Of a DNA stretch of 64,000 bases, positions 35,915-51,690 are shown in pieces. Below the pieces are notes generated by a model. It was not told the DNA's origin, searched no databases, and saw only the letters and a list, made by a program, of their open reading frames with translations. Both the position numbers and the translations under genes were made by a program. The first letter of the stretch is position 1, and each line of letters opens with the position of its first letter. The DNA lies in NCBI GenBank assembly GCA_050249615.1, contig JBFWQE010000013.1, positions 406 through 64,405 on the forward strand. Direction: 5' to 3'. Source of the DNA: Vicinamibacterales bacterium (GTDB taxonomy: Bacteria > Acidobacteriota > Vicinamibacteria > Vicinamibacterales > UBA2999).

Positions 35915-35955
35915 ACGGAGAGATGTCCGAGTGGTTGAAGGAGCACGCTTGGAAA
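35915..35955 (+). repeat. attL: 41-bp direct repeat = orphan 5' half of tRNA-Ser(GGA)
   Basis: ACGGAGAGATGTCCGAGTGGTTGAAGGAGCACGCTTGGAAA is identical to 50907-50947. Identity ends at the last base of the anticodon loop. Confidence 0.85.
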
Positions 35956-36235
35956 TCCACCTGGCCGTGCGCGATGGCGTGCTCTCGATTGCGATAAGCG
36001 TTACAGATTCAGGCGCTTAGCGCGAATCGCCTCACGAGCGTCGATCCCCATAAACCACTGTATTTCTCTCGAAATTGATCGGGTCACGTCACGGTTGCGT
36101 CACGATCGGGCGCTGTGACGTCGGGCACGTTCGCGGCATCGTGAACATGGCGCGGGCGTGGACATCGACCGCCAACCTATGCGCCCGGCCTGGGCGAAGG
36201 AGACGGAGTTCGAAGGCACTTGGCGTCGGACCTCC

Positions 36236-37066
36236 TCACCTCTCCCCGGCCACGCTGGCCAGTGCGGCCTTCAGCACGTGAACGCAGAGCGTGGCGGTGT
36301 GGTGGTCGGGTGTGAAGCCTGACACCATCTGCTCGTACGGGTGAATGTAGTTGCGGAACTCTCGAAGGCCGTGGCCGAACTTCTTGACGTCCGGCTTGAG
36401 GATGCCGATTTCGCAGGCCACATCGATGAACTGCGCGAGCGTCCACTCGTGGAACTTCCTGACGCTGGCGTCCTGGTTTCTTGGGCTGGCGGATGCTTTG
36501 TTGAAGCGCGCCGGTTCCTTCTGGGCGGCACCGAGAAGGACCGCTTCGAGCACGCTCCCGCACAGGAAGATCACTGACAGGTGGGCCCCGGCGGCCAGTG
36601 CCTTGTCGGCTTCCGCCAAGCGGCTTTCAATGATGGGCACGACCTGCTGCTCGATGGGGAGTTTCTGAACGTTTGGAGCGGCGAAATGACGGCTCAGGAA
36701 CTCCGCGGCAGACTGCTCCGGAGGCGGTGGTGCCGCTCTTCCTTGAAGGCGCGCGACGATGGCGCGCGTCTTGGTCAGAGCGGCGGAATCGATCTCGCGC
36801 TTGTTGAGATCGCAATCCGCCTCGTAGGCGTCGAGCAGTTCGGACAAGACCGAACCGACGACGGCGTCCGGCTCGACCTCCCAGAAGGCGCGAAGCTTCT
36901 TGGCCTTGGATGTACCGTACTTCTGATATGGGCCGTGGTGGATGTCGCGCTTGTGGCGCTTGAAGAACGTGTCGAAGGTCGCGTCCGTGAAGTCGAGGAC
37001 GTAGCCGCCACCCATGCCAAGCACCTTCTCGACGTAGCGCTTCTCAATATCGGTGAGACTGCTCAT
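36236..37066 (-). CDS. hypothetical protein with HEPN-like C-terminal domain (AbiJ-like architecture?)
   Basis: The start MSSLTDIEKRYVEKVLGMGGGYVLDF is at ATG 37066. The helical C-terminus has HLSVIFLCGSVLEAVLLGAA and GHGLREFRNYIHPYEQ (an R-x6-H / RNxxH-type motif). It lies 105 nt downstream of gajB on the same strand. Confidence 0.5.
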   Translation of the reverse strand: MSSLTDIEKRYVEKVLGMGGGYVLDFTDATFDTFFKRHKRDIHHGPYQKYGTSKAKKLRAFWEVEPDAVVGSVLSELLDAYEADCDLNKREIDSAALTKTRAIVARLQGRAAPPPPEQSAAEFLSRHFAAPNVQKLPIEQQVVPIIESRLAEADKALAAGAHLSVIFLCGSVLEAVLLGAAQKEPARFNKASASPRNQDASVRKFHEWTLAQFIDVACEIGILKPDVKKFGHGLREFRNYIHPYEQMVSGFTPDHHTATLCVHVLKAALASVAGER

Positions 37067-37171
37067 GAGCGGGTTCCGGGCGTGTCGTTGGGAGGGTGAG
37101 CGGTCTTCCGCGCTACCGCCAGATCCTTGTGAAACGCCTTGGACGGCGGATTGACGACCAACGGCGGCCAA

Positions 37172-39088
37172 CTACGCACTGGCCTCAACGAGCCCCATCT
37201 CCACTAGGAACCGCGACGGCGCCTTCTTCCAACCTCGATAGCTCTTGGCTCGGCTGAGCACGAGGCATTCTTTCGTACGGGTGATGGCGACGAAGCAGTT
37301 GCGACGCTCTTCCTCCATCTCCGGGCTCCCGTCGCCCTTCTGGCGACTCTGGAAGGAGGGCATGATGTCTTCCGCCAGTCCGATCACGTACACGCGCTCA
37401 AACTCCCGCCCCTTCGCCCCGTGTATGGTCATAAGCGTAACAGAGTGCGGTCTCGGCGCTGGCTCCTTTGAGCGCAGCTGCAACTCCTGCAGGAACTGTT
37501 CGAGCGGTGCGCCCGTTCCAATGTGGCTCGCGATGTCTCGGCTAAGGCCGCGCCACGCAGCCATGTCTTCAGCCACATCCGATTCGTCCGACGCGGCGTT
37601 CTGTCGGTCCGACAACTCCTGAAGTATGCCGCTCATGTCAATCTGGATCGTCGACGCAGTGCTTGTCGTTTGCACGTACTGAAGCAGTGCATCCGATGGC
37701 GACGACGCGCCACTCAGACGCGCAGACTCCAACCACGTTGCAAGGTAGCTGAATCCCGTTGATTCGGCATCCGCGACCACCTGCGCGCCGTCGACGGATG
37801 TCCCCGCCATTCGATTGAACGAATCGACGAGCACCGACAGGTTCCGCCTGTCCAATGGTCTGACCGTCTGCCGCAAGACGGCAACAAGCCACCTGAACTC
37901 CGGCGACAGAAAATCGTCGCGACGTTGCGCGACTCCTGCGGCTACACCTGCGTCATGCAATGCTCTGTTCATCCGGTCTAGGAGGGCCTTCGTTCGCGCA
38001 AGGACCGTCGTCTGGTCCCAGGAGCCTCGGCCGGTGCTCGCGATCTCCGTGGCAATTCCGACGGCCTCGTCATCCTCCGTCTCGAACACGCGCAGCTGAA
38101 TCTGCTCAGAGTCCGGGTACAGGCCGCTCGTCTTTCCCGCGACTAGTGGCCCCTTGGTTGCCGTACGTTGAACGTTATAGACAACGAGCCGATTGGCCGC
38201 CTCTACGATCGCTGCGGGGCACCGATAGTTCGTCGGCAGCTGGATGACCTGAGCACCGAAGTCGGCGATAAATGCTTGAATCTGCTGGTAGCTGGCTCCA
38301 TTCCATCCGTAGATGATTTGGTCATCATCTGCAACAGCGAACACGTTCTGAAAGGAGTTGGCGGCAAGACTACGGAGGAGAGAGTACTGGGCACGATTCG
38401 TGTCCTGGAACTCATCTATCAGCCAGTACGGATACGACCGCCGATAGCGCGTCGCGATTGCCGGAAACGCCACCAGAAGACGATGGGCCTGAAGGATGAG
38501 GGAGTTGAAGTCCAATGCGTTCAGCCGGCGCAACTCCTCTTCGTAGACCCGGTACGTGACTGCAATCCGCTTGGCTTCGGGTGCCCTCCCCAGCGCGCTC
38601 TCTGCTTCCTCCGGCTCAATGAGGCTCGCCTTGAGTCGGTCGATGACTGGCAGGTGCCTGACGTCGTCCGGGTCACTCTGTCCTTCGGCCCTTGCCAAGG
38701 CATCCTCCAGGACAGCTTTTCGATCTGCATCTGTCGAGTAGATTGCAAAGTCGGACTGAATCCCGATATGGACGCCGTGCTGTCGCAGTACCTGACCGCA
38801 GAAACCGTGAAATGTCGCGATGTTGGCGCGCTCTTCCAGGCCCGGCACGAACGTAGCGACGCGGCTCTTCATCTCGTCGGCCGCCTTGTTCGTGAACGTG
38901 AGAGCGAGAATCCGGAACTGCTGATCACGCGAACGGTCGAGCAGGTCGGCAATGCGACACGTCAAGACCTGCGTCTTGCCCGAACCGGGGCCCGCAAGCA
39001 CGAGCAGTGGTCCCTGGTCCCACTGTACCGCTTGACGCTGAATGTCGGTGAGTTGCGCAAGAGCGGCGTTGAACGGCGACTCGGTCAT
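37172..39088 (-). CDS. gajB: UvrD/PcrA/Rep-family helicase, Gabija GajB
   Basis: Walker A LAGPGSGKTQVL, motif II LIDEFQDTNRAQY, a VLARTK-type motif and C-terminal TIHGAKGREFERVYV. The start overlaps the gajA stop (ATGA at 39085-39088). Confidence 0.8.
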   Translation of the reverse strand: MTESPFNAALAQLTDIQRQAVQWDQGPLLVLAGPGSGKTQVLTCRIADLLDRSRDQQFRILALTFTNKAADEMKSRVATFVPGLEERANIATFHGFCGQVLRQHGVHIGIQSDFAIYSTDADRKAVLEDALARAEGQSDPDDVRHLPVIDRLKASLIEPEEAESALGRAPEAKRIAVTYRVYEEELRRLNALDFNSLILQAHRLLVAFPAIATRYRRSYPYWLIDEFQDTNRAQYSLLRSLAANSFQNVFAVADDDQIIYGWNGASYQQIQAFIADFGAQVIQLPTNYRCPAAIVEAANRLVVYNVQRTATKGPLVAGKTSGLYPDSEQIQLRVFETEDDEAVGIATEIASTGRGSWDQTTVLARTKALLDRMNRALHDAGVAAGVAQRRDDFLSPEFRWLVAVLRQTVRPLDRRNLSVLVDSFNRMAGTSVDGAQVVADAESTGFSYLATWLESARLSGASSPSDALLQYVQTTSTASTIQIDMSGILQELSDRQNAASDESDVAEDMAAWRGLSRDIASHIGTGAPLEQFLQELQLRSKEPAPRPHSVTLMTIHGAKGREFERVYVIGLAEDIMPSFQSRQKGDGSPEMEEERRNCFVAITRTKECLVLSRAKSYRGWKKAPSRFLVEMGLVEASA

Positions 39089-40998
39089 GCCAGCCCTCTC
39101 AGTTCTCCGATCGCGTCGCGAAACTGCTGAAGAGTGCGTGTCGCCAGCGCGGGGTCAGTGGCCAGGCGCTCGGCGAGTTTGGCAGCGACATCGATCTTGC
39201 ACTTCTCGAGTCGTGTCTGGAGAATCGGCAGACCGATCGTGCCGGCGTCGGCGTGCCCGAGTTCCTGCAGGATGGCGCGAAGCTCAGGTTCCAGGCCGTC
39301 CGCCAAGAGTTGCTGCTCCAGATGGCCCCCAGCCAGAGTACGGCACCGCTGAGCCACAAACCCAGGGTCAAACTGACGATCGGTGATCTTCTGGACGTAC
39401 CCATGGCCAGCGTTGTCGCCATCGAAGACGGCCAGCCACGGGATTGACAGCGCTCGGGCCAGAGCCGCGAACGTGGATGGATGGCCGTTGTTCATGGCAT
39501 CGATAACAGCCACGCCATGTTCATCCAAGTCGTATCCGATCGCCTTGGCAAGCGCGTGAACGATCAGGTACTCCGCTTGTCCTTCCACGAGCATCCAGCG
39601 TCGAGCGAAGAAGATCTCACCTCGGATGCGTCGTGCGAAGGTCTCGAGTGACGCCAGTTCGTCGTCCGACATGAACAGCATTGAGCGGTCCTTCAGCTCT
39701 CTCAGGACCCCGTGGATCACTGCCCTGTCAGGGTGCTGTCCATAGACGGTCAGAGTGTCGCGGTATAGAGCCTCGGGAAAGGCGCCGTTGACCGTAAGCG
39801 TCTCCGTCAGTCGGTCGTAGACGAGGAGGCCACCCGACCCCGCCACGACGCCATCGAGGGACGGAACGTGCGGAACGGTGGCTGAGAAGTTCGGGGGCAG
39901 CCAGCTAATCTCGGTGCCGCGCTCAGTCAAACGGACGAGGCGAAGGTCACGAAAGGGGACGTGCGGGACGAAATACGGCGAGTGCGTCGTGATGATCTTC
40001 TGCCCGGGGAGCGCATTCACGTGCGCCCACAATGTCCGGGCAGCCTGTGGATGCAAGTGCGTCTCAGGCTCCTCCAGAGCGAGGGCTGGAACGCTGTCGG
40101 GCTGATACAGCTCGGCCAGCAGGTGCTGGACGAACGCTTGAAAGAGAAAAATGACGGAAAGACTCTGGAGGCCTTGGCCGTGACGCTGCAATGGCAACCA
40201 TGGCCAGTCCGGTTCGTTGCGCAGAATGATCTCTGCCTTCGAGAGCAGATCCCATGCCTTGAGTGGAACAAGGCGGAGGTTGACTCCACCGTCACGGTCG
40301 CGCGCGGCCACCTTCGTGGCTCCGGACAGGGTCGTCGCGACTTGCGCCAGCCTTGGGTCCGCGTCTAGCAGCCTGGTGTTGAGTCGATCAAGTATCTTCT
40401 GGACCCGAGCTTCCAGCGTTGCGGGGATCTTCATCGCCTTTAGAAGACGGCCCCAGAACTGTGATCGCGAGGAGAACTCGTCCTCGGCGTCTCGAAGGGC
40501 ACCGAGGTAGAAGACGGGCAAGTACTCCCAGAAGCGTTCGAGGTTCAGCCGCCGCGTGGCCCCACCGAAGAGCGGAGCTCGAGCCGCGTTCAGGAAGGCC
40601 CAGTCCGCCACGAACTGCTCTTCGCCGGCATTCCACCCCCAGCCCGCCCGCAACGTGATCGAGTTCTGTCCGGTCGCTGGATCGGTCTGGACAATCTGAT
40701 CCAGAGCCTGTTGGACGGCATCTGGCCATTCGCCCGCCGCGCCCTCCTCGGTTCGGAGTTCGATAGCAACTGGAGTCGAGGTTTTCGGGTCGTCAGTCTG
40801 GGTGGCGAGGTGAATGTCGTATTCGGTGAAGCCCGTTCCGCGCTGTCCCCAGCGTCGCGTGAGCACAATTCGGACGGCATCGAGAATTGCCGTTTTCCCC
40901 GCGTTGTTTGGCCCGATGAAGACCGTCGTTTCGCCGAGCTGAACATCGAGCGCCTTTATGGAGCGAAAGTTCTCAATGCGCAGGGATGTGATTCTCAT
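39085..40998 (-). CDS. gajA: OLD-family ATPase-Toprim nuclease, Gabija GajA
   Basis: MRITSLRIENFRSIKALDVQLGETTVFIGPNNAGKTAILDA (ABC/AAA_15 N-terminus), LALEEPETHLHP (Walker B/D-loop) and C-terminal Toprim MLVEGQAEY ... VFDGDNAG. A class-2 OLD nuclease next to UvrD is the Gabija arrangement. Confidence 0.8.
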   Translation of the reverse strand: MRITSLRIENFRSIKALDVQLGETTVFIGPNNAGKTAILDAVRIVLTRRWGQRGTGFTEYDIHLATQTDDPKTSTPVAIELRTEEGAAGEWPDAVQQALDQIVQTDPATGQNSITLRAGWGWNAGEEQFVADWAFLNAARAPLFGGATRRLNLERFWEYLPVFYLGALRDAEDEFSSRSQFWGRLLKAMKIPATLEARVQKILDRLNTRLLDADPRLAQVATTLSGATKVAARDRDGGVNLRLVPLKAWDLLSKAEIILRNEPDWPWLPLQRHGQGLQSLSVIFLFQAFVQHLLAELYQPDSVPALALEEPETHLHPQAARTLWAHVNALPGQKIITTHSPYFVPHVPFRDLRLVRLTERGTEISWLPPNFSATVPHVPSLDGVVAGSGGLLVYDRLTETLTVNGAFPEALYRDTLTVYGQHPDRAVIHGVLRELKDRSMLFMSDDELASLETFARRIRGEIFFARRWMLVEGQAEYLIVHALAKAIGYDLDEHGVAVIDAMNNGHPSTFAALARALSIPWLAVFDGDNAGHGYVQKITDRQFDPGFVAQRCRTLAGGHLEQQLLADGLEPELRAILQELGHADAGTIGLPILQTRLEKCKIDVAAKLAERLATDPALATRTLQQFRDAIGELRGLA

Positions 40999-41489
40999 GA
41001 TGTGCTGTCCAACGGCCCTACGCTAGTGAAACAACAGCACGGGCGAGTGCGAGTGGCGTCGACCTCGAACGTCAGCCATGGACTTTTGCCCTCGCCGAGT
41101 TGCCCTGACAATCCGGCGGCGATCTCGGGTGCCAGCGCGTCACGGACGACAGCCGTGCACTTCGCTTCGGCTCGTTCCATCCACTTGCCCGCCTGGCCCT
41201 TGCTCAAGGCAGCCATCGCGTCGGGTTCGTCGAGGCCGAGGAACGCCGGCGCCAGCGAGAGGTCGATGTCCTCCGGAAACCGATTGATGACGTCGAGGGC
41301 TTTCGAGAGCGACGTACCGCCCTTGAAGGCGATGGCATCTCGAAAGGACGACTGGAACAAGATGCTGAGGAGCCAGCACACCCAGAAGCCCTTCTCGACG
41401 ATTACGGGAGCCAGTCCTCGACGGGCTGCGGCTTCGTCGATGTAGACGTTGCGCTCGGCAGCCGGCAGCTCGAGGAACGCCAGCGTCAT
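40995..41489 (-). CDS. AbiEii/AbiGii-family nucleotidyltransferase toxin, C-terminally truncated (probable remnant)
   Basis: EKGFWVCWLLSILF...FKGGTSLSKALDVINRFPEDIDLS are the NTase motifs I/II. It is only 164 aa against ~250-300 expected. The tail TRTRPCCCFTSVGPLDSTS looks like read-through into the gajA leader. ATGA overlaps occur at both ends. Confidence 0.6.
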   Translation of the reverse strand: MTLAFLELPAAERNVYIDEAAARRGLAPVIVEKGFWVCWLLSILFQSSFRDAIAFKGGTSLSKALDVINRFPEDIDLSLAPAFLGLDEPDAMAALSKGQAGKWMERAEAKCTAVVRDALAPEIAAGLSGQLGEGKSPWLTFEVDATRTRPCCCFTSVGPLDSTS

Positions 41490-42094
41490 GACGCCAGATC
41501 CTTCAGCGGACGGTGCATCCATTCTGGCGCCAGCGTCAGGTCCTTGAGCAGCGAGCGCCGATCGTCGGCTGGCAGCGTGCGCCGGAGTCTGGCGATTCGT
41601 TCCGGCGTGATGCACTCCGGGCCGAGGTGACGGAACGCCTGAATAACGAGCCCAGACGGACGTCCGGCAGCCGCCATATTGCGCGGCGTGGTGCGTCGAA
41701 GCTGCAGCGTGATTGGGCCGACCCGGACCACTCGGCTCGGGCCATCGGTGAGGAAAACCACCTTCGCGGGCACATGCTCCGAAAGGCCCAGCAGATTCGC
41801 GGCATAGGCTCCGGACGGCTGAAGTCTGACGCGATCACGCCCGGCCATCGCCTTCGCGAGGGCCTCTGGCGTCGGAGAGAGCTGGCCCAAGCTCGGGTGC
41901 AGCTTCGGAAAGTCGTACAGGCCTCGGCCGAGCTGACGGATCGTCCCTGCCTCCGTCTGGCGCCGTAACGCCGAGGTAATGGCCGGACGGCTGGCCAGGT
42001 CCAGGAAGTGGCGCGGGGTGAACACCCACCCCCTCCCGTGCCCCCTGATGCGGTCAAGTATCGACTTTTCAGCCGATTGTGGGCGCTTCGCCAT
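41486..42094 (-). CDS. AbiEi-family (type IV TA) antitoxin / transcriptional regulator
   Basis: The start MAKRPQSAEKSILDRIRGHGRGWVFTPRHFLDLASRPAITSALRRQTEAGTIRQLGRGLYDFPK is the AbiEi_4/DUF6088-type N-terminal wHTH. The stop overlaps the abiEii start. Confidence 0.8.
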   Translation of the reverse strand: MAKRPQSAEKSILDRIRGHGRGWVFTPRHFLDLASRPAITSALRRQTEAGTIRQLGRGLYDFPKLHPSLGQLSPTPEALAKAMAGRDRVRLQPSGAYAANLLGLSEHVPAKVVFLTDGPSRVVRVGPITLQLRRTTPRNMAAAGRPSGLVIQAFRHLGPECITPERIARLRRTLPADDRRSLLKDLTLAPEWMHRPLKDLAS

Positions 42095-42174
42095 GAAGAT
42101 TCGAAGCAAAAGATGCCATAAATTTGCTGCACAAGGAAGCTCGATGGACCGCCGCAAGGTCAGCGGGGCCCGTT

Positions 42175-42224: not shown

Positions 42225-43931
42225 TCACGAAGGGCCGGACCGTTCGTACCACGCCCCCTTCTTGCTGCCGCGCTGGACCAGACGGCCATCCTCGGTCAGG
42301 CGCGTGAGGAGCCGGTACGCCTGGTCTGCCGACAGCCTACAGAGCTCCGCCACCTCGGCTCTGGTGATCCGTCCGTGTCGTTCGACGTACTGCAGCACCA
42401 TCTGTTCCTGCTGCAGCGGTTCGAATCCCCGCTGGCGCACGTACGCGGCCTTGTCGCCAAGGGCTCGATACGTCGCAGCCGAAAGGTGCCAGGTGCGTCC
42501 CTTCTTCTGGCCACGCTCTTCGACGAAGCCAGCCTCCACCAGGCGGTGTAGCACGGCGCGCGCGTCACCGTCCGGCTTCTGAATGAGCCGGCCGACATCG
42601 GGTGTAGTCAGGCTGCGCTCCTGCCACAACGCATTCAGCACGAGCAGCTCGTCGAGGCTCAGGTCGCGCTCGTGCTGCGCCTCGGTGACGAGCAGCCTCA
42701 CGAAGTCCAGATTCGCCTCGCCACCTGGAATGACCACCACCACGCCGGTCGCGTCGCTGCGTGCGTAGGATGGCGCTGGCCGGCCGTTTCGCAACTGCTC
42801 GAAAAAGATCGTGTCGATCCCGCGCGCGGTCCGTTCGACGATGCCGGCCCGTTTGAACGCGTCAGCAAGAAGCGGATTGCGCGGGCGAGGGGCCGTGACC
42901 AGCAAGTTGTCAAGGCGAACGCCTTCCGGAAAACCGCCGGGGCTGCTGATCTCGATACGGTCCAAGTGCCACTGAAAGTGCACCGCACCGAGGCGCTGAT
43001 AGTCACGGTGGATCAGCGCGTTGGCCAGCGCCTCACGCAGGGCCCGCTCCGGGTAGTCCGGCACGCCCACGCGCAGCAGGCCCACCATCAGCTCCTCTTC
43101 GCGATTGCGCGCACGAATCCGCGCTTCGATCTCTTCCATCACCCGGAGCAGGGGCCAGCGGAAGAAATCGTTGACCTCGACATCGAGGCCACGCAGCACC
43201 TGGAACGCGACCTCATTGCCGGGTACGAATCGACGAAGAGCATCGTCCTTCCCGAAGAGGAGCACGGCAGCCAGGCGCAATGCTCGTGGGCTCCCGTTGG
43301 CATCAACCACGCCGAGGGCCTTCGCCAATTCCAAGTCAGGCAGGTTGAGAAGGGATTCGTCGCTGCGTCCCCGACGTTCGCGGACACTTCGTCGGAAGCG
43401 CTCGAACTCAAGCGGGTCCAAATCCTCCCACCGCGCGCCGCCCACCACCTGCCCTGAAGGGTCTAGCTGACCCCGGTCCGCCTGCTGCGACTGGATGGCA
43501 AGAGCGTCCATTGGAGCGCACGCCGGGCGTCCGTCACCGCCCAACGTACGGCGCAGGAACTGTCCGTCACTCGTGCAGACGACGTGCTGTTGTGGCGGCA
43601 CCTCGACCACCAGAACGGACATACCGTCCAGCAAGTGCTCTTCGACTTGCACGGCCAGCGCCGGCCGCGTTCGACCCGCGACGAGGGCGGCGACTCTGTC
43701 GAGATCCGTCGTCGCGTCGTGCCGGGGACGAGCGCCGGTGACTGTGCCGTCGTCCTCCACACCCACGAGCAGCCAACCTGGTGCGACGGCGGTCCGATTG
43801 GCAAGACAGACGACGGCCTCGACGAGCTCGCGGTCGTTGAGGATCGATCGCTTCTCTCCCTTGAACTCGACATCCAGTGTTTCGCCGCCAGCGATGATGC
43901 GGCGCAGTTGCTTCACGGTCATGGGTATCAC
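42225..43931 (-). CDS. AlbA_2 (Schlafen-like) + HATPase_c_4 + C-terminal wHTH protein (COG2865-type)
   Basis: N-terminal GGETLDVEFKGE...LVEAVVCLANRTA (AlbA_2), mid ALREALANALIHRDY (HATPase_c_4), and C-terminal wHTH repeats (LHRLVEAGFVEERGQKKGRTWHL; LLTRLTEDGRLVQRGSKKGAWY). Confidence 0.75.
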   Translation of the reverse strand: MIPMTVKQLRRIIAGGETLDVEFKGEKRSILNDRELVEAVVCLANRTAVAPGWLLVGVEDDGTVTGARPRHDATTDLDRVAALVAGRTRPALAVQVEEHLLDGMSVLVVEVPPQQHVVCTSDGQFLRRTLGGDGRPACAPMDALAIQSQQADRGQLDPSGQVVGGARWEDLDPLEFERFRRSVRERRGRSDESLLNLPDLELAKALGVVDANGSPRALRLAAVLLFGKDDALRRFVPGNEVAFQVLRGLDVEVNDFFRWPLLRVMEEIEARIRARNREEELMVGLLRVGVPDYPERALREALANALIHRDYQRLGAVHFQWHLDRIEISSPGGFPEGVRLDNLLVTAPRPRNPLLADAFKRAGIVERTARGIDTIFFEQLRNGRPAPSYARSDATGVVVVIPGGEANLDFVRLLVTEAQHERDLSLDELLVLNALWQERSLTTPDVGRLIQKPDGDARAVLHRLVEAGFVEERGQKKGRTWHLSAATYRALGDKAAYVRQRGFEPLQQEQMVLQYVERHGRITRAEVAELCRLSADQAYRLLTRLTEDGRLVQRGSKKGAWYERSGPS

Positions 43932-45024: not shown

Positions 45025-46085
45025 GTACGCTGCCGTTGGAGCCGACGCCGCTTCCACCGGAGCCCCAGTTCTGGTTCATCAAGGAGACGAGCGCAGAACG
45101 GCTGCACGCGATATCGGCGTTCGGGTTCACGGACCGGCAGTCGCGCTTTCTCCTGGAGGTCCTCCTGCATTCAGGCGTCTTCCTCGAACGCCAGTACTGC
45201 CAGTTCGCCGGCATCGTCCACGGCCAGAAGAGCACCGACTTCATCAGGAGCCTCGTTGACCGCCAGTTCGCCACGCCCATCGCGCCAGGCAAGCTGCATC
45301 GCGGGCGGATGTTCCACCTGCACTACAAGCCGTTCTGGACCGCCATTCGCGAGCCCGACAGCCGGTTCCGCAAGCGGGCGGCGCTCGGCCGCCTGATCGA
45401 GCGCGTGATGCTGCTCGACGCCGTCCTGGACGATCGCTCGATGGTCTGGCTTGGGCCGTCCACCGACAAGCGTCGGCACTTCACCAGCCACCTGGGTGAC
45501 CGCTTCGATCTCGCTGATCTACCCCGCCTGCAATTCGGCCACGGCCCGCGCCCGACATATCGCCACTTCCCGGACAAGCTCCCGATCGGCGACGACCCGG
45601 AGCGCACCGACCACCACGTCTTCGTCTATCTCGTGACGACGCCGGTGCCGTGGGACTTCAGGCTGTTCCTGCTGCGGCACGTGCCGCTGCTGTGGAAGCT
45701 CAGTCGGTGGACCATCCGGCTGCTGTTTCCGAAGCCCCTGATGAAAGCCGAACGAGTCTACCTGCACGCCGCCCGCGAGCATCTGATGGGAACGACGGGC
45801 GGGCGCAACGTGAGCATGATCGAGCGGATGTTCAAGGAGCGCCTGCGGCAGACCCACCCCAATCCCGGGCCTTCGTACACCGGGTACCAAGAGGACGGGC
45901 GAGTGTTCTCCGGGCCGCGCTTCCAGGCCCTCTATCGCCAGTGGTTGGTCGACCCCGAACGCACCCTCTGGATGGCCGATTCCCATGTCCTCGCGGACGC
46001 GATCGAGCGCGGGTTGGGCCGTGTCGAGTGCGTCGAGCTGACGCGCCAGTATCTGCATCTCTCACCCCTGGTCGACATCGCCTGA
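45021..46085 (+). CDS. hypothetical protein (second wHTH-like, replication-relaxation-like?)
   Basis: GTG at 45021 overlaps the upstream TGA (GTGA). FTDRQSRFLLEVLLHSGVFLERQYCQFAGI resembles the Replic_Relax-type wHTH opening. 354 aa with no other recognisable motif. Confidence 0.45.
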   Translation: MSTLPLEPTPLPPEPQFWFIKETSAERLHAISAFGFTDRQSRFLLEVLLHSGVFLERQYCQFAGIVHGQKSTDFIRSLVDRQFATPIAPGKLHRGRMFHLHYKPFWTAIREPDSRFRKRAALGRLIERVMLLDAVLDDRSMVWLGPSTDKRRHFTSHLGDRFDLADLPRLQFGHGPRPTYRHFPDKLPIGDDPERTDHHVFVYLVTTPVPWDFRLFLLRHVPLLWKLSRWTIRLLFPKPLMKAERVYLHAAREHLMGTTGGRNVSMIERMFKERLRQTHPNPGPSYTGYQEDGRVFSGPRFQALYRQWLVDPERTLWMADSHVLADAIERGLGRVECVELTRQYLHLSPLVDIA

Positions 46086-46128: not shown

Positions 46129-47160
46129 TCAGCCCCGCATTGCCTGACCGTCCGGTCGCGGATATGCCTTCTCCGCCATCGCGAAGATCGGTGCCAAGGG
46201 CCAGACTGAGCCCTCGGCCTTGAACTCGAACGAGGCTCGCTCCTCCTTCAGTTCCGCCAACCGACCGTAGAGCTCACCCGAGTCGCGGATGGGCAAGAAC
46301 ACGAGGACCGGGCCCATCTGAACGCCCCAGCAAACAGGCAGTTCGGGTCTGGAAATACGAAAGACGCGTCGCTCCGAGAAGGGCAGCGGCATCGGCAACC
46401 GGAACGAGAATGCGTCGATCCATTCGTGGGTTGGCTCTTGAATCTGCCGTCGGACTGGCCCCAGAAACGGATGCATGGCGTACCGGTAACCCAAGAGCGC
46501 GAAGACGGCCAAATACGCCGACTTCAACCAGCTGACCTTCGCTCGTCTGTCGTTGGGATCTGTCAGTTGAAACGACAGCCGAAAAGGGGCAGCCAAGGCC
46601 GGTGCCCGCGTGACGCCGTCGAAGTACTCCGCGACACGACTCAGAGTCGCCGGAGCCCCGCCCAGCATGGTGATGCGATTCTCTCCCGCCGCGCTCGTCT
46701 CAAACTTGGCTGGCAGTTCGTGGTCTCCGACGTGCAGCCGGCCGTGCACCGGCTCCTGACCGGCAAGGGCTCTGATGCTGCGCTCGACGCGATGAGCCAT
46801 GGCATCGATGCCGTGTCCGGCAGTGCTGTTACATGGCTTGCAGGTGAGCACCAACGGACGCCCGTCTGAGTGCCTGGGAGGGACGTCCTCGATGGTCAGG
46901 AGGGTTCCCAACATCGCCGCGGTGAACAGCTTCATCCGCGCTCGGCCGTCAGCCTCGGTGACGGCGCACAGGGGGCACGCGTAGGCTGGCGGAATCGGAT
47001 CGCCGGTGGCTGTTGTCAGTTGTCCAAACGTGAGCCCGAGGTCGCGTACGCCCGCCTCGAACCAGACTTGCCGCCGCTTGTCTCTCGAAGCTCTCCCCAC
47101 TGACCGATGATAGTCTGCAACAGCGTCACACGGACCCTTCGTTCGGTAAGGCCGGGACAA
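46129..47160 (-). CDS. HNH_5-like zinc-ribbon protein with His-to-Asp change at the catalytic position
   Basis: CPLCAVTE...LTIEDVPPRHSDGRPLVLTCKPCNSTAGHGID parallels the CxxC...EH(V/I)xP...CxxCN layout of HNH_5 endonucleases, but reads ED instead of EH. 343 aa. Confidence 0.5.
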   Translation of the reverse strand: MSRPYRTKGPCDAVADYHRSVGRASRDKRRQVWFEAGVRDLGLTFGQLTTATGDPIPPAYACPLCAVTEADGRARMKLFTAAMLGTLLTIEDVPPRHSDGRPLVLTCKPCNSTAGHGIDAMAHRVERSIRALAGQEPVHGRLHVGDHELPAKFETSAAGENRITMLGGAPATLSRVAEYFDGVTRAPALAAPFRLSFQLTDPNDRRAKVSWLKSAYLAVFALLGYRYAMHPFLGPVRRQIQEPTHEWIDAFSFRLPMPLPFSERRVFRISRPELPVCWGVQMGPVLVFLPIRDSGELYGRLAELKEERASFEFKAEGSVWPLAPIFAMAEKAYPRPDGQAMRG

Positions 47161-47289
47161 CCCCGGGGGACAACCTCGATTTCGGAGGTCGTCCCCCTGA
47201 GCGCTTGCTCAACGACCTGGCCGCGTGCGCAGCCGGCGTTGGCAGCCACCCGCCCTGGAGCGCGACAATCGCCTGTTCGCGCGCCACTT

Positions 47290-47459
47290 CGCGGCACAGC
47301 AGCCAGCCGCCGCTCTCGACGGGCGGCGCTCTGTGCCGCCCCTGTAGGCGCAAGAGTAGACGCCAACACAGGACACCATGGCGTGAGCGACCCCGGTTGG
47401 CGCGCTCGATTCCGTCCCGCGCGTGTCCGGAAGGGTCGCTCACGCCATGGCTGTCAGTG
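47290..47459. other. structured non-coding segment: two long hairpins in a 637-bp gene-free gap
   Basis: GCGGCACAG...CTGTGCCGC (47290-47339, with inner CCGCC/GGCGG). A perfect 18-bp inverted repeat CCATGGCGTGAGCGACCC / GGGTCGCTCACGCCATGG (47376-47393 / 47442-47459) encloses a 48-nt loop. Confidence 0.6.
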
Positions 47460-47797
47460 TCGCTCTCGGTGTCGGTACGGGCCTGGATGTGGCTGGTGCG
47501 CGCCGCTATCGTGCGGGAGATACTGGTCCCGAACGTGGCCAGGTTGTGCGGTAGGTTTCGCGACGGATAGCGCCGAATTGCCAGTGCGGAGAACAGGCTG
47601 ATTCCGGACCGGTTTCCGAGCCGCTGCCATCACGCATTCGATGCTCGATCTGTGCTCGGCGCCATCAAGGCGCGTCGCTTCGCTCGGCCCGCGTGACTGT
47701 GAGCGGCTCCGGCCTTGACCGCGCCTGCGCGCAGTCGGTGATGGGCAACTGCGTGATGGCTTGGCGTGCGCGCCGGAATCGGCCAGCGGACTCTGCT

Positions 47798-48673
47798 CTA
47801 CTTGCGCAGTTCGCGTTGGCAGACCGTATCGATGCGCTCGGCAAGGAAGGCGGCCAGCTTCCGGCTCTCGTCGAAGGCTGACGCGCGCAACAGTTCGATC
47901 ATGTCTTCGTACGTCGCGACAGCCAGCCGATCGCCGTACTCCGGCAGGAGAACCTGTTCCCTGAACGCACTCACCTGTGCGCGCAGAACAGCACCCACAC
48001 GGTCCGGCACAATCGCCAGCGTAGCCCACGCTGCGCGTCCCGACGATGCAGCGAACAGGACGTTGCGCATCAACTGGAAGTTCGGCCCCCGGAACGGACA
48101 CACCTGGCCGCTGGCCTGTGTTGCGAACACACGCTCCCGAAACAGGGACCGCCCCTTGCGCCAGTACGAACGGGCTCCCCGAGCGCCGTCGGCCACTTCG
48201 AGGCGACAGTTCGACGCTGTGCCGGTCTTCAGGTCCGAGCCGGGGCCGTAATGGCCGCCACAGTGTTTTGGAAATTGACTGCAGGGGCCGAATCCTTCGC
48301 GCGCATCCATGATGAACTTGGACTCGATGCACACGGCGCTGGATTCCGAACGGCAGAACACGTCCAGCGAAGTCGCCGTCACTCGACCCGACTCGTCCAG
48401 AATGCGACGATCGGAATGCTCCAGCAACAGTTCCCACGGGCCGGTGAGGCCGCGTTTCGGGAAGTGGCGGGTCAGAAGGGCCTGCAGAATCACCTGGCCG
48501 TCGGCCGCGTGGCGCAAGGAGCCAAACGCGGACACGCAGAACACCTGTGACGACTGCTCGCTCAGCGGAGAGTGCCACCGAATGCTCAGGCCTTCTGACT
48601 CCGTCAACGCGCCAGCCAGGTATGTGGCGTTCGTCTGGACTTGGTGCCAGCGCTCAGCGGGATGGGTGCGCAT
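47798..48673 (-). CDS. PD-(D/E)xK nuclease-like protein
   Basis: The start MRTHPAERWHQV is at ATG 48673. TSLDVFCRSESSAVCIESKF fits D-x(n)-E-x-K. 291 aa, no methyltransferase partner nearby. Confidence 0.5.
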   Translation of the reverse strand: MRTHPAERWHQVQTNATYLAGALTESEGLSIRWHSPLSEQSSQVFCVSAFGSLRHAADGQVILQALLTRHFPKRGLTGPWELLLEHSDRRILDESGRVTATSLDVFCRSESSAVCIESKFIMDAREGFGPCSQFPKHCGGHYGPGSDLKTGTASNCRLEVADGARGARSYWRKGRSLFRERVFATQASGQVCPFRGPNFQLMRNVLFAASSGRAAWATLAIVPDRVGAVLRAQVSAFREQVLLPEYGDRLAVATYEDMIELLRASAFDESRKLAAFLAERIDTVCQRELRK

Positions 48674-49199
48674 TGCGCACGGTTGTAGCACATCAGTTGG
48701 GAGGAGCAGTGCTCCTCGTGTCGATCTTGCCCATTGACCTCGACCCGGAGCAGCGGTAGCCTGTCCTCTCGTCCGTGCCCCACTGCACACCTGCCGCGCG
48801 AGCGACACTCGGCGCGGGTTGCTGACGGCCGGCGCCTTCAGGGCTCCCGCCAGCAACACACTTCCTGACTAGCACGGCTTCGAACTCCAGCGCGCGTACC
48901 GAGTGCGGCGTCTCGGAGTTCCACCATCGCTCGCGGCGTGCCACAACGGCCTGCCGCGGCGGTGTTCGGGAGCCCGGTTGTCCCACTGACGATTCAAGAA
49001 GGCAGCACGTCAGCGCACCGAGGGCTTCGGAAAGCATCGGCCTCAGGCCGTGCATGAACGCGGCGCCCATCGCCCCGCGTTCTCGGTGTTCGGCGTTACG
49101 CCGGCATCTCGCGCAACTGCCTGCGGCGCGTTGACCCAGGTCACCGCGTCCGAGCGCGCCATTCGTGGACGTTCGGCAACAAGCATTGCGAGGTGCACC

Positions 49200-49424
49200 A
49201 TGAGGCCTTGGTTGACGGTCGGCGAAGGCGCTGACTACGCGAACGTGAGTCGGGACACGATCTACACCGCGTGCGAAGGAAAGGAACTCCGGCACGTGCG
49301 GATCAGCGGACGACGGACGATCCGGTTGCGGCCGATCTGGATCGACGCCTGGCTCGAAGAGCACGCACGGGAACCGCGAAGCGCGCGCGGCACGATGCAC
49401 CTGCAGAACGGAGCGGCATCATGA
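49200..49424 (+). CDS. excisionase-family HTH DNA-binding protein
   Basis: MRPWLTVGEGADYANVSRDTIYTACEGKELRHVRISGRRTIRLRPIWIDAWLEE is the Xis/AlpA/MerR-type pattern. Confidence 0.7.
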   Translation: MRPWLTVGEGADYANVSRDTIYTACEGKELRHVRISGRRTIRLRPIWIDAWLEEHAREPRSARGTMHLQNGAAS

Positions 49425-49672
49425 ACGCGCAGGTCATTCACCACGGCACCCGCGCGCTCACCGAGCGCGAGGTCTCCGACCTGCTCGGCCTGTCGGTGGC
49501 TACGCTGCGCGCGTGGCGGCATCGAGGCCAGGGGCCGCGGTTCCTACGCCTCGGACGGGCCGTACGCTACCTCCCGGCAGACCTTGAGAAGTTCGTCCGT
49601 GCCAGCACCGTTGACGCCAGTGCGGAACCGTCGCCTGATCGGCAGACCGGCATCGAGGAGTTGCGGTCATGA
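49421..49672 (+). CDS. AlpA/HTH_17-like DNA-binding protein
   Basis: ATGA overlaps occur with both neighbours. LTEREVSDLLGLSVATLRAWRHRGQGPRFLRLGRAVRYLPADLEKFV. Confidence 0.7.
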   Translation: MNAQVIHHGTRALTEREVSDLLGLSVATLRAWRHRGQGPRFLRLGRAVRYLPADLEKFVRASTVDASAEPSPDRQTGIEELRS

Positions 49673-51690
49673 GCCTCTGGAAGCGCGGACGCCAGTACTG
49701 GGCAGACTTCACGGTGGACGGTCGGCGCTACCGCAAGCGCCTCGGCACGACGAACCTCCAGGTCGCGAAGCAGAAGGAACGGCAGCTCATCGAGGATGCC
49801 GGCCTCGGAGGCGTGGCCACGCACGCGCAGGGGCCGAAGCGCCTCTTCGAGGCCGTGGACGCCTACATCGAGGGGAAGCGCCTGCACTGCTCGCCGCGCA
49901 CCATCGAGTTCGAGGAGGAGCGCCTGATTACTCTGAAGCGCTGCTTCGGTGACGTGCCGCTAACCGCGATCACGGCCAAGGCGATTGCCGACTACCAGCG
50001 CCAGCGCCACGAGGCCGGCAAGGCCAACCGCACCATCAACATGGACGTCGGCGTGCTGTCGCGCGTGCTCAAGTCGTGCGGCCGGTGGCGCGCGCTGGCC
50101 GACCATGTGCGCAACCTGCCCGAGCGTCAGCGACCGGTCGGGCGGGCGCTGACGCCCGAGGAGCGCAAACGGCTCTTCGACGCAGCGGCGTCGAATCCGG
50201 AGTGGGAGCACGTCTACTGCGCGGCTGTCGCTGCTGCCAACACGTCGATGCGCCCGGTGGAGGTCAAGCACCTCCGCCGGCGCGACGTCGATCTCGAGAA
50301 GAAGCTCCTGTACGTCCGCCGGAGCAAGAACGAGACGAGCCACCGCGTCATCCCGCTCAACGCGTCGGCGCTGCAGGCCATCACCAGGATGGTCGAACGC
50401 GCCGATCTGCTCGGCCACACCGAGCCCAATCACTACCTCTGGCCTGCCTGCCAGTGGGGCCGCTACGACCCGACGCAGCCGATGCTGAAGTGGGACACAG
50501 CTTGGCGGGCCCTGCGTGACGCCGCTGGGCTGCCGCGGTTCCGGTTCCACGACCTCCGGCACACGGTGATCACCGAACTCGCGGAACTCGGCGTGGCTGA
50601 TCACGTGCTGGAGTCGATCAGCGGACACCTATCGAGGCGCATGTTGGAGCACTACTCGCACATCCGCATCGACGCCAAACGGCAGGCCCTCGACGCACTG
50701 GACGAATCACGGCGAGACGGCCACAATGGCGACGGCACGAGTGGAGACGCGCACGCGGACAGGAGCGGCGACAGCACTGAAAGACCCAAGAACGGCGAGG
50801 AAGTCCCGCTGCTCGTGGCACTCGCCGAGGGGCTTACGTCACAGTTACGTCACAGTTTGCGTTTGGCGGGATCGCCGCCCTCCGCTAAACTATTGATTCC
50901 ACTTGCACGGAGAGATGTCCGAGTGGTTGAAGGAGCACGCTTGGAAAGCGTGTGTAGGGGAAACTCTACCGTGGGTTCGAATCCCACTCTCTCCGCCATC
51001 CTTCGCGCCACCAAGCCCATTCGCGGCACGCCGCCGCGGGATCTCATGCGAATCTCATGGCTCGCTCACGATTCGGTGAGGACTTCGCGGCCGGCCTTCC
51101 GTCACAGTGGCGCATATGACACCCACTGTGACGCCCTCCGTGAAGGCTCTCGCCCTCATCGCCCTCGGACTGGCCATTGCCGGGATGGGCCTTTACGTCG
51201 CCAACGCCGACGACGCGCCCGGCGCGGCGGTCATCGGATTCGTGCTGATGCTGGCCGCGGTCCTGTTCGCCGTCAGAACGGCACGGAACCGGCTGCCCAC
51301 CTGGGCTGGGCGCACTGCCCTGGCGGTCGGCGTTCTCACTGCGGCGTTCGCGGCATTCCTCACCCATGTGGTCACCGCGGCAGCGCCGCTCTTCCCGCAA
51401 GCGCGCGACGTGCCATCGGTCGGCGATTCGGCACCGTCGCCGCAATATGCGGGGGCCGTCGAGCGCGCGCGGGAGTTCGTGCGTGCAGCCGTCCTCCAGC
51501 AGAACCTGCCAGGGGTGTCGGTGGCGGTCGGTGCCGGCGGCACGGTCGCCTGGTCGGAAGGGTTCGGCTGGCGGGACATCGACACGCGGACGCCGGTGAC
51601 ACCGGATACCCGATTCAACATCGGCACGGCGGCGTCCGCGGTCACAGCCGCCGCCGTGTCGCCGCTCCGGCTGACCAACACCGGCGTTGA
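49669..51690 (+). CDS. tyrosine recombinase / phage-type integrase (catalytic core ~49669-50720; the ORF has no stop until 51690)
   Basis: N-terminal SAM-like domain with AIADYQRQR. Catalytic residues RPVEV (Arg), HDLRHTVITELAE (HxxR), GHLSRRMLEHYSH (His...Tyr). The ORF then reads through attR and the tRNA-Ser gene and overlaps the next gene out of frame. Confidence 0.85.
   Translation: MSLWKRGRQYWADFTVDGRRYRKRLGTTNLQVAKQKERQLIEDAGLGGVATHAQGPKRLFEAVDAYIEGKRLHCSPRTIEFEEERLITLKRCFGDVPLTAITAKAIADYQRQRHEAGKANRTINMDVGVLSRVLKSCGRWRALADHVRNLPERQRPVGRALTPEERKRLFDAAASNPEWEHVYCAAVAAANTSMRPVEVKHLRRRDVDLEKKLLYVRRSKNETSHRVIPLNASALQAITRMVERADLLGHTEPNHYLWPACQWGRYDPTQPMLKWDTAWRALRDAAGLPRFRFHDLRHTVITELAELGVADHVLESISGHLSRRMLEHYSHIRIDAKRQALDALDESRRDGHNGDGTSGDAHADRSGDSTERPKNGEEVPLLVALAEGLTSQLRHSLRLAGSPPSAKLLIPLARRDVRVVEGARLESVCRGNSTVGSNPTLSAILRATKPIRGTPPRDLMRISWLAHDSVRTSRPAFRHSGAYDTHCDALREGSRPHRPRTGHCRDGPLRRQRRRRARRGGHRIRADAGRGPVRRQNGTEPAAHLGWAHCPGGRRSHCGVRGIPHPCGHRGSAALPASARRAIGRRFGTVAAICGGRRARAGVRACSRPPAEPARGVGGGRCRRHGRLVGRVRLAGHRHADAGDTGYPIQHRHGGVRGHSRRRVAAPADQHRR
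50907..50947 (+). repeat. attR: 41-bp direct repeat (5' half of the intact tRNA-Ser)
   Basis: Identical to 35915-35955. Two direct TTACGTCACAG arm-type repeats lie at 50834-50855. Confidence 0.85.
50909..50998 (+). tRNA. tRNA-Ser (GGA)
   Basis: GGAGAGATGTCCGAGTGGTTGAAGGAGCACGCTTGGAAAGCGTGTGTAGGGGAAACTCTACCGTGGGTTCGAATCCCACTCTCTCCGCCA has anticodon loop TTGGAAA, a long variable arm, a GGTTCGAATCC T-arm and an encoded CCA. Confidence 0.9.

Follow-up and report, generated by a model that had tools for sequence, protein, structure and literature searches.

As listed in Table 1, the 15-kb island is best explained as an integrative element of a Vicinamibacterales family that has entered the 5′ half of a tRNA-Ser(GGA) gene and whose int gene spans attP. 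I assign this whole explanation a probability of about 0.85. The window is the entire 64,000-nucleotide stretch of DNA analysed here. Comparative sequence statistics showed that the int ORF spans attP. This is a new finding; the crossing of the attachment site by int is absent from the initial annotation of this DNA. Since int spans attP, integration swaps the C-terminus of the integrase: in the integrated island, the last 21 residues are replaced by the read-through of the tRNA 3′ half and the flank. It also follows from the course of int across the attachment site that the likely tRNA promoter and the tRNA half sit inside protein-coding sequence.

Table 1. Features of the element, its two junctions and the tRNA gene (positions in the window)
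Feature	Position	Strand	Basis
Native promoter of extended -10-like type, TGCGATAAT, staying beside the orphan tRNA half	35872..35880	+	direct reading
attL core, orphan copy of tRNA-Ser(GGA) -2 to 39	35915..35955	+	exact 41-nt repeat
Detached int 3′ end: 21 codons IHLAVRDGVLSIAISVTDSGA + TAG, in the int frame across the core when excised	35955..36020	+	
P′ arm: conserved motifs GTCAC..GTCGATC..GTAAACC	36021..36120	+	
ORF downstream of gajB, cargo	36236..37171	-	no match in Pfam, PADLOC, NCBIfam, PHROGs
gajB, UvrD-type helicase of Gabija	37172..39088	-	PADLOC GajB E ~3e-241; PF00580, PF13361
gajA, OLD-family ATPase-TOPRIM nuclease of Gabija	39085..40998	-	PADLOC GajA E ~4e-246; AAA_15, OLD-like TOPRIM
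Truncated abiEii, N-terminal third only	40995..41615	-	profile positions 4-118 of 309; 2-76 of 238
abiEi / DUF6088 antitoxin-type regulator	41486..42157	-	PADLOC AbiEi E 5e-63; PF19570
Schlafen AlbA_2 + HATPase_c_4 + wHTH protein	42225..43931	-	Pfam; phrog_12156
Backbone ORF pair, translationally coupled (312 and 354 aa)	44086..46085	+	
ORF	46129..47160	-	family searches: no match
REase-ARP type restriction-endonuclease-fold protein	47798..48859	-	PF22558 E 2e-12
Excisionase-family HTH gene 1	49200..49424	+	HTH_17; TIGR01764 E 4e-9; phrog_66
Excisionase-family HTH gene 2	49421..49672	+	HTH_17; TIGR01764; phrog_66 E 1e-9
int, tyrosine recombinase, to the core end, no stop codon	49669..50947	+	PF00589 E 5e-24; phrog_1 E 5e-57
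P arm: 11-bp direct repeat ACGTCACAGTT, two copies within the int tail, candidate arm-type sites for the integrase	50836..50857	+	
Element-borne promoter candidate TTGGCG-17 nt-TAAACT, in the int tail, ends 18 nt before the tRNA	50863..50891	+	
attR core: 5′ half of the working tRNA, supplied by the element	50907..50947	+	exact 41-nt repeat
Functional tRNA-Ser(GGA), the genome's only copy	50909..50998	+	ARAGORN, intact, 90 nt

The island is bordered by an exact 41-nt direct repeat on the plus strand. Both copies lie where the initial annotation had placed them; they are the only ones in the window and in the 5.98-Mb genome, and no copy occurred by chance across 100 shuffles. The repeat corresponds to positions -2 to 39 of tRNA-Ser(GGA), and the right copy is the 5′ half of the intact tRNA gene called by ARAGORN, as had been proposed. 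The 7-nt anticodon loop TTGGAAA ends at position 39, beyond which the copies diverge (TCCACC... versus GCGTGT...), in agreement with the described end of identity. Two origins unrelated to integration were considered for the left copy, namely a chance repeat and a leftover of another tRNA gene. Both are refuted: the identity is 41/41 with zero copies expected, the sequence beyond the left copy has homologues in the left arms of related elements from many genomes, and the repeat boundary always lies after position 39. The segment from 35956 to 50906 has a G+C content of 64.4%, compared with 70.3% and 70.4% for the two flanks, and only 0.33% of the 15-kb windows of the genome have a G+C content as low as that of the island. 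Thus, the GC profile bears out the visibly lower G+C content. The host is a soil acidobacterium.

Two contigs of G018, the closest relative, align colinearly with the left flank (window positions 28247-33328) and with the right flank (50850-57060); in G018 a different element occupies the same tRNA locus. Thus, the 15-kb segment is an insertion, as the annotators had thought. The comparison with an empty attB, which they had proposed, succeeded in part: element-free genomes have the tRNA gene with a native promoter, but none of the relatives yielded a strictly empty site between two syntenic flanks, G011 sharing the right flank only. An integrase of the same clade (clade A) lies directly upstream of the tRNA in the same orientation in 45 related loci from many Vicinamibacterales metagenome-assembled genomes (MAGs), and paired orphan halves were found 8-22 kb upstream in nine genomes. 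These loci confirm that the element supplies the 5′ half. A total of 74 integrase relatives were collected, their MAGs being mostly labelled Acidobacteriota or Vicinamibacterales; the element family is widespread in Vicinamibacterales (Acidobacteriota). The type-1 left arm is paired with 8/9 clade-A elements, the pairing of arms being ambiguous where tandem arrays occur, and the clade-A element of G049 has a different left arm.

The family has a conserved backbone, consisting of xis-xis-int and two ORFs, and a variable cargo. The integrase and the two Xis-like genes reported just inside the right end were recovered by the Pfam, NCBIfam and PHROG profiles given in Table 1. The two excisionase genes overlap each other and are best read with the borders listed there; the stop codon of the second overlaps with the start of int. 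The two coupled backbone ORFs share 77-88% amino-acid identity with their counterparts in 5/5 related elements compared, while family and plasmid searches gave no match for them. The reported defence and nuclease cargo was likewise found with Pfam and PADLOC: Gabija, AbiE remnants, a Schlafen-like regulator, and a REase-ARP protein. Gabija has adjacent gajA and gajB genes with full-length PADLOC matches and overlapping stop and start codons. The AbiE pair is not a complete toxin-antitoxin system; AbiEii is cut down to the profile segment shown in Table 1 and its gene abuts gajA. The abiEi gene is common to the elements of G048 and G047, and the Schlafen AlbA_2-HATPase_c_4-wHTH gene to the element of G052.

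How does int cross the attachment site? In the integrated form, int is open to position 51690 (673 aa), and in the excised form it is predicted to encode 447 aa ending with ...DGVLSIAISVTDSGA. The split falls about 85 residues past the catalytic Tyr, and the detached part comprises 21 codons only. The int frame is read through the tRNA half, giving RRDVRVVEGARLE, in 33/48 loci; among the 15 loci with no read-through, eight are integrase fragments and five look full length. The linker has thirteen different lengths (157-211 nt), every one of which is congruent modulo 3. In 13 independent left arms, the codon differences in the int frame are 303 synonymous and 256 non-synonymous, versus 50/482 and 43/444 in the two remaining frames. 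The stop codon keeps its position in 13/13 left arms from genomes and in most of those from metagenomes, and more than 80 metagenome contigs encode the same left-arm peptide. In the right arm, the synonymous fraction is 47% in the int frame versus 12% and 11% off-frame.

The same data bear on the idea that the read-through of int is an inconsequential by-product of a high-GC sequence with few stop codons, the enzyme being complete at about residue 345 and the tail riding on DNA-level att and promoter signals. The linker is indeed of low complexity and predicted to be disordered, no known domain is recognised in the tail, int stops at -15 or -23 in a minority of loci, and the integrated form here continues for 246 meaningless residues. 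However, a by-product is not expected to maintain the frame with all thirteen linker lengths, to show, left as well as right of the core, a 4-fold synonymous excess in the int frame, or to keep the stop position so widely; I consider this explanation quite unlikely.

It is very unlikely, too, that the 21 left-end codons belong to an independent small protein rather than to the integrase C-terminus. For example, a 29-aa ORF might start in the integrated state from an in-frame GTG in the orphan half, preceded by GGAG and served by the native tRNA promoter. The core does contain GGAGAG-N8-GTG, the left arm sits behind many different upstream contexts, and the coding signature of the left arm alone leaves the upstream start undecided. 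On the other hand, the conserved frame is the int frame, held through the variable linker in the loci with read-through, and the coding signature extends to the right-arm codons. A start codon within the tRNA half is constrained by the tRNA and not by selection for a start. Moreover, AlphaFold packs the arm-encoded strand against two left-arm strands. In that model, a disordered linker is followed by a three-stranded sheet (pLDDT 84.7) whose strands are encoded by the arm, the core, and the left arm. No relative of the tail was found in Pfam, PDB-sequence, and Foldseek searches. The tail is better regarded as a C-terminal module of the integrase. The module, of about 60 aa, is encoded in the order of the right arm, the tRNA 5′ half, and the first 21 codons of the left arm, and the excised circle would therefore encode a 447-aa integrase in which this module is complete. 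The right arm also holds the arm-type repeats and the promoter candidate. The P-arm repeats ACGTCACAGTT are invariant across clade A, third codon positions included, and the P′ arm has three GTCAC arm-type repeats and one inverted copy at 36083-36120.

The orphan half was said to have taken the original promoter with it, and this agrees with the relatives. Upstream of position 35917 there is TGCGATAAT, and the uninterrupted tRNA-Ser(GGA) genes of element-free relatives are preceded by an extended -10 type motif, TGCGATAAT or TGCTACACT (TGnTAnAnT-type). The same motif class precedes orphan halves elsewhere. A formal sigma-70 scan called no promoter at the native site. For the rebuilt tRNA, the initial annotation had left a choice between read-through from int and an element-borne promoter. 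The latter is likely, as predicted from the TTGnnn-17 nt-TAAACT motif, which is kept 18 nt before the tRNA in 45/45 clade-A right-arm loci, synonymous sites included. The scan made no call at this candidate, which matches the consensus at 8/12 positions with a threshold of 9.

This absence from the consensus scan would suit a rebuilt tRNA without its own promoter, made solely by xis-xis-int read-through as proposed for the archaeal pTN3-like elements; TTG...TAAACT would then be conserved by a coding or integrase-binding constraint. There is no terminator between int and the tRNA, and for pTN3-type elements the integrase promoter is described as driving tRNA expression (PMC8371274). However, an essential single-copy tRNA would hang on an integrase operon whose expression is usually low. 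Furthermore, the -35 TTG is invariant whereas the neighbouring Leu codon alternates between TTG and CTG, and TAAACT with the 17-nt spacing also persists where no int ORF covers it, in another arm family (CACAAT type) unrelated to the first. Transcription by read-through alone is thus unlikely.

The most probable mechanism is as follows. A lambda-type tyrosine integrase, aided by the two excisionase-family proteins, would recombine attP with the tRNA-Ser(GGA) 5′ half, from position -2 to the end of the anticodon loop. The crossover probably occurs within the 7-bp anticodon loop, with the anticodon-stem inverted repeat on both sides. The rebuilt tRNA would be transcribed from the TTG-17-TAAACT promoter inside the int 3′ end, and xis-int read-through possibly reinforces this transcription. 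The swap of the C-terminus may change the activity or stability of the integrase and may bias the element towards staying integrated.

Among known systems, Zhao and Williams reportedly described in 2002 a reverse-orientation integrator of tRNA genes, an element of Mesorhizobium loti; their paper is cited in PMC1635311 and PMC6563490. The present element behaves like such integrators: it uses the 5′ part of a tRNA gene as attB and brings this portion together with the upstream region, so that the rebuilt gene lies downstream of element DNA and the native promoter is orphaned. Unlike the Mesorhizobium loti element as reported, it belongs to a large family with a defined tRNA-Ser(GGA) target, a conserved promoter motif, and an int gene spanning attP.

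The classical anticodon-loop class of tRNA-targeting integrases is said to have been defined by Williams in 2002. As in that class, a tyrosine integrase lies beside the tRNA, and direct repeats of a tRNA segment border the island, one of its junctions holding an intact tRNA. The identity block likewise ends on one side within the anticodon loop, and the catalytic R...HxxR...H...Y can be read in the int translation (MRPVE, HDLRH, SGHLS, LEHYSH). Unlike that class, the identity block extends from the loop to the 5′ end and not to the 3′ end, a mirror image; the element does not supply the 3′ portion, and the tRNA does not keep its own promoter. In the anticodon-loop class, the 7-nt loop and the stem mimic the overlap region with its core sites (PMC8371274). 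As the initial annotation had stated, regeneration of the 3′ part is the rule among tRNA integrators and that of the 5′ part is rare (PMC6563490, PMC8371274), so the arrangement found here is rare but not unprecedented.

The pTN3-like 'suicidal' integrases of Thermococcales (Cossu et al. 2017) use a tRNA 5′ half as attB with att inside int, and suicidal integrases are stated to be known only in archaea (PMC8371274). The frame and the coding signatures across the core place att inside the int ORF here too, as in the SSV/pTN3 type. As in pTN3, int and the tRNA are co-oriented; the 5′ part of int precedes the rebuilt tRNA, and the severed 3′ part of int follows the promoter native to the tRNA. 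However, in pTN3 the split parts the N-terminal moiety from the catalytic one and leaves the enzyme inactive, whereas here int is not divided into two non-functional moieties, the split coming after the catalytic Tyr. Unlike pTN3, the enzyme is bacterial, carries the canonical R-HxxR-Y residues and is accompanied by excisionases.

The Myxococcus phages Mx8 and Mx9 have attP within the int 3′ part, so that intP becomes intX (PMC6070905; Tojo 1996, Magrini 1999). On integration of Mx8, recombination gives int a different 3′ end while its catalytic domain stays intact, which was proposed to modulate recombination (PMC6070905). In the present element, attP likewise lies in the int 3′ part and the C-terminus is replaced, and the end of the excised form, derived from the sequence, is conserved. 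All matches of the integrase in a phage collection were below 60% identity, Pseudomonas phages being the best at 28%, and Mx8 was not among the matches listed. Mx8 targets the 3′ end of a tRNA-Asp gene, and its int is not known to contain a tRNA promoter; here the target is a tRNA 5′ half, and a tRNA promoter candidate lies within int. Integration-dependent immunity of the cluster G/N mycobacteriophages, with attP inside a coding sequence, was reportedly described by Broussard et al. in 2013. There, as may be the case here, integration alters the C-terminus of a protein and thereby its stability or activity, but the split gene of these phages encodes a repressor, while that of the present element encodes the integrase itself.

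It was found that the 41-nt repeat described in the initial annotation occurs exactly twice in the window (35915-35955 and 50907-50947, plus strand), where none is expected by chance, and the 5.98-Mb assembly has no further copy. ARAGORN places an intact 90-nt tRNA-Ser(GGA) at 50909-50998; the genome has 54 tRNAs, and no other carries the anticodon GGA. The repeat begins 2 nt ahead of the tRNA and reaches position 39, where the anticodon loop TTGGAAA ends; beyond it, the left copy continues into TCCACCTGG and the right copy into GCGTGTGTAGG. As had been claimed, the right copy is the 5′ half of the intact tRNA and identity ends at the last base of the anticodon loop. The lower G+C content of the island was also borne out: the enclosed 14,951 bp have 64.4% vs. 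70.3% and 70.4% in the flanks, and only 0.33% of the 15-kb windows of the genome are as low. The repeat and the island are confirmed.

Are both flanks of the 15 kb chromosomal? In G018, the closest relative, one contig is colinear with window 28247-33328 and continues into an orphan 5′ half and then a different element. Another G018 contig combines the complete tRNA with a right arm of a different kind and is colinear in its genes with window 50850-57060. Thus, both flanks belong to the chromosome, and this tRNA is a hot spot. The initial annotation had suggested looking for an empty attB in related genomes. No fully empty site was found there (the relative G011 has only the right-flank gene in common, and G018 is occupied by another element). 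In seven element-free relatives, including G011, the uninterrupted tRNA-Ser(GGA) is preceded by an extended -10-like motif (TGCTACACT or TGCGATAAT) that ends about 20-37 nt ahead of it. The orphan half in the window has TGCGATAAT at 35872-35880, and the orphans of G018, G022, and G026 have upstream sequences of the same class; directly upstream of the right copy lies element DNA. This agrees with the claim that the element provides the 5′ half and leaves the native promoter-proximal half orphaned. The reading of the island as an insertion with an element-supplied 5′ tRNA half is supported.

Some irregularities were seen around the site. The 2.5 kb between the G018-syntenic block and the orphan half (window 33400-35914) are not common to G018, have a lower GC (66%), and contain ORFs without family matches. 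The ~110 nt just upstream of the orphan are closer to G022, a different genus (81%), than to the closest relative. The otherwise uninterrupted tRNA-Ser(GGA) of G011 (L027, G011:C33, 7919-8007) lacks one T in the anticodon loop (CGCTGGAAAGCG), which could reflect an error of the assembly or damage to the gene. A contig of another relative (L005, G003:C87, 1-7097) begins within the tRNA and has ~5.9 kb between the tRNA 3′ end and the beta-lactamase-fold gene, which adjoins the tRNA in the window; this gap may be a conventional 3′-side insertion at the same tRNA.

Features of the window element
Feature	Position	Strand	Remarks
ORF without family assignment	36236-37171	minus	
gajB	left of gajA		full-length PADLOC match, E 3e-241
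gajA	right of gajB		full-length PADLOC match, E 4e-246
abiEii remnant	40995-41615		N-terminal third only, profile positions 4-118 of 309; overlaps gajA start
abiEi (DUF6088)	right of abiEii remnant		
Schlafen AlbA_2 / HATPase_c_4 / wHTH protein	right of abiEi		
Two coupled ORFs	44086-45024 and 45021-46085		
ORF without family assignment	46129-47160		
REase-ARP nuclease-fold protein	47798-48859		
Two small excisionase-family HTH genes (xis)	49200-49424 and 49421-49672		best reading
Tyrosine integrase (int)	start 49669		R...HxxR...H...Y seen in MRPVE, HDLRH, SGHLS, LEHYSH
Two direct repeats ACGTCACAGT-CACGTCACAGT	50836-50857		right arm
TTGGCG and TAAACT	50863-50868 and 50886-50891		right arm

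The cargo had been described as defence and nuclease genes, with an integrase and two Xis-like genes just inside the right end, and both descriptions hold (Gabija, abiE genes, a Schlafen AlbA_2-type protein, and REase-ARP; a tyrosine integrase preceded by two excisionase-family HTH genes). It looks as if Gabija has displaced the remainder of the abiEii toxin gene, with abiEi surviving. An abiEi gene without its partner was found in two related elements too. Across five complete relatives, the conserved backbone consists of the left arm, the coupled ORFs at 44086-46085, and xis-xis-int. Variation lies in the left part of the element, and Gabija is present in the element of the window only. The coupled ORFs had no match in Pfam, PADLOC, NCBIfam, PHROGs, or the plasmid collection. 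They are the most conserved non-recombination genes of the family (77-88% amino-acid identity, five of five related elements) and probably serve the backbone, for example in replication, regulation, or transfer.

A scan of species-representative genomes revealed 74 integrase relatives. In 45 loci, a right arm of clade A, the group to which the window element belongs, lies directly before the tRNA-Ser(GGA) 5′ half on the same strand; the tRNA is complete in 29 of them, and in 16 the half is followed by the left arm of another element. Towards the tRNA, the arm consensus reads ACGTCACAGT-CACGTCACAGT direct repeats, TTGnnn, 17 nt, TAAACT, gTTGATTCCACT, 5-6 nt, and the tRNA. Nine genomes with long contigs have orphan halves 8-22 kb upstream of the rebuilt tRNA, several of them as tandem arrays. 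Both ends could be paired for nine clade-A elements, and eight of these carry the left-arm type of the window element. A second arm family has CACAAT repeats and an oppositely oriented integrase (55% identical), and retains TTGCCG-17-TAAACT at the same distance. The integrases of this second clade are found 1-4 kb away from the tRNA. Two or three elements stand in tandem at tRNA-Ser(GGA) in L031 (G026:C10), L029 (G012:C19), G041:C1, G043:C2, and G044:C2; the right arms fall into at least three families (GTCAC repeats, CACAAT repeats, and others), and the left arms also form at least three.

The GTCAC repeats are present in both arms of the window element (50836-50857 and 36083-36120), and these repeats are candidate arm-type integrase sites. 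The motif CGTCACRG is not enriched across the window (16 sites vs. 12 expected), and only its clustering at the ends is meaningful. Outside the island, ~100 nt beyond the tRNA, the motif occurs as an inverted pair (CGTCACAGTGG...CCACTGTGACG, 51100-51133) that extends over the start of the beta-lactamase-fold gene; the pair may have arisen by chance, serve a regulator, or be left over from an older arm.

How is the rebuilt tRNA expressed? Since tRNA-Ser(GGA) is encoded by a single copy with element DNA upstream, it must be transcribed from island DNA, as the initial annotation had stated. Scans for sigma-70 consensus and terminators at both junctions called no promoter, and TTGGCG/TAAACT reached 8 of 12 in the consensus scan, under the threshold of 9. 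The argument for an element-borne promoter is comparative. In clade-A arms, the TTG of the -35 element is invariant while the neighbouring Leu codon switches between TTG and CTG, and TAAACT and the 17-nt spacing are kept. The pair recurs in the unrelated CACAAT family, where no ORF lies over it. Because of this conservation, TTG-17-TAAACT is a candidate element promoter for the tRNA. The rebuilt tRNA may instead be made by read-through from xis-int, alone or alongside the motif; conservation of the pair, also where no ORF overlies it, argues against read-through alone.

In the integrated form, the int frame meets no stop codon ahead of the tRNA, and its translation stays open to 51690 (673 aa). 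When the ends are joined as in an excised circle, 21 further codons (IHLAVRDGVLSIAISVTDSGA) follow the core before a TAG at 36018-36020, and the predicted excised-form integrase has 447 aa. Is this an accident of high GC? In 33 of 48 loci, the frame of the catalytic domain stays open across the whole tRNA half; eight of the other 15 are integrase fragments. The distance from the catalytic domain to the tRNA takes 13 different values (157-211 nt), all congruent modulo 3. In the 26 codons before the tRNA, the synonymous share of pairwise codon differences is 47% in the int frame (vs. 12% and 11%). For 13 independent left arms, the 16 codons that follow the core give 303 synonymous and 256 non-synonymous differences when read in the int frame, as against 50:482 and 43:444 in the other two frames, and the stop is at an identical position in all 13. 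Thus, the kept frame, the modulo-3 distances, the synonymous excess, and the conserved stop argue that the read-through is not an accident of high GC. A metagenome scan gave at least 120 contigs, and the left-arm peptide IAL(A/T)VCDGVLQISITVAKPTT is nearly constant among the 80 inspected. The left-arm coding signature has a rival reading: GGAGAG in the orphan half, with an in-frame GTG 8 nt on (35917-36020), may be the start of a 29-aa ORF that has the conserved TAG as its stop. Only two of the metagenome contigs listed join a clade-A right arm, the core, and a type-1 left arm; int is broken in both, and they are no evidence for an excised circle. At the sequence level, the site, the architecture, the split of the int ORF, and a coding constraint to the left and right of the core are clear, and a predicted integrase C-terminus that depends on the integration state is supported.

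In an AlphaFold model of the C-terminal fragment of a natural excised-form integrase (L080), the linker is disordered and the end is rich in beta structure. Taken alone, the last 59 residues are modelled as a three-stranded sheet (pLDDT 84.7), whose strands are encoded by the right arm (KLLIPL), the core/left-arm junction (RLEIALTV), and the left arm (VLRISITV). The tail had no Pfam match even at E ≤ 10, the PDB profile search gave just a chance match (E 0.55), and Foldseek on the model returned nothing below E 0.4. A likeness of the tail (LLIPLxRRDVRVVEGARLEIxLAVxDGVLxI) to the swapped-hairpin domains of AbrB/SpoVT/MazE was not supported by these searches.

Strand exchange probably takes place within the 7 bp of the anticodon loop, which the stem arms flank; section 18 of PMC8371274 argues generally for exchange at such a position in anticodon-loop sites. 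The identity block extends 5′-ward, and thus the tRNA would be restored. The two HTH proteins may act as directionality factors, and loss of the last 21 residues upon integration may change the activity or stability of the integrase. It is tentatively proposed, with a probability of roughly 0.3, that the family is a bacterial counterpart of the archaeal 'suicidal' integrases, in which integration is a switch: the island would silence its own integrase while taking over the expression of an essential tRNA. One stretch of ~180 bp would hold the codons of the integrase C-terminal module, the arm-site array, the tRNA promoter, and half a tRNA gene. The complete 447-aa integrase would be encoded by the excised circle only, and integration would put the last beta-hairpin 15 kb away. 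The int mRNA would then enter the complete tRNA, and, speculatively, RNase P processing would cut it before any stop codon, leaving a non-stop mRNA and a tmRNA-tagged integrase.

Integration with a tRNA 5′ half has so far been treated as a rare curiosity in bacteria, and an att site inside int as an archaeal speciality plus Mx8. In the present family, the two features coincide in an abundant soil lineage, with at least 45 genomic loci, at least 120 metagenome contigs, and tandem arrays of at least three arm families at one tRNA. The family offers a tractable case of an element taking over the transcription of an essential single-copy tRNA, a natural extreme of sequence multitasking (codons, arm sites, a putative promoter, and a tRNA in one stretch), and a testable mechanism that may write the integration state into the integrase protein. 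Its backbone is a vehicle for variable defence cargo, here Gabija, in Acidobacteriota, a phylum with little-studied mobile elements.

In PMC6563490, recombination with the 5′ part of a tRNA gene is called 'considerably less frequent' than with the 3′ part, and Zhao and Williams 2002 is cited for a bacterial example. The statement in the initial annotation that 3′ regeneration is usual agrees with this paper and with PMC8371274. The present family is not of the classical 3′-regenerating class, because supply of the 3′ portion by the element was tested and not found. The review PMC8371274 describes archaeal pTN3-like integrases, which target the tRNA 5′ half with att inside int, and attributes the expression of their tRNA to the promoter of the integrase; there, the arrangement is found 'seldom' in bacteria and suicidal integrases are called exclusive to archaea. 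This topology is common to the present family, which is not a suicidal integrase in that sense because its catalytic domain remains whole. In Mx8, as described in PMC6070905, attP lies within int and integration gives int a new 3′ end, a non-suicidal split point like the one seen here. To the pTN3 topology and the Mx8-like split, the present family adds a candidate promoter within the coding tail.
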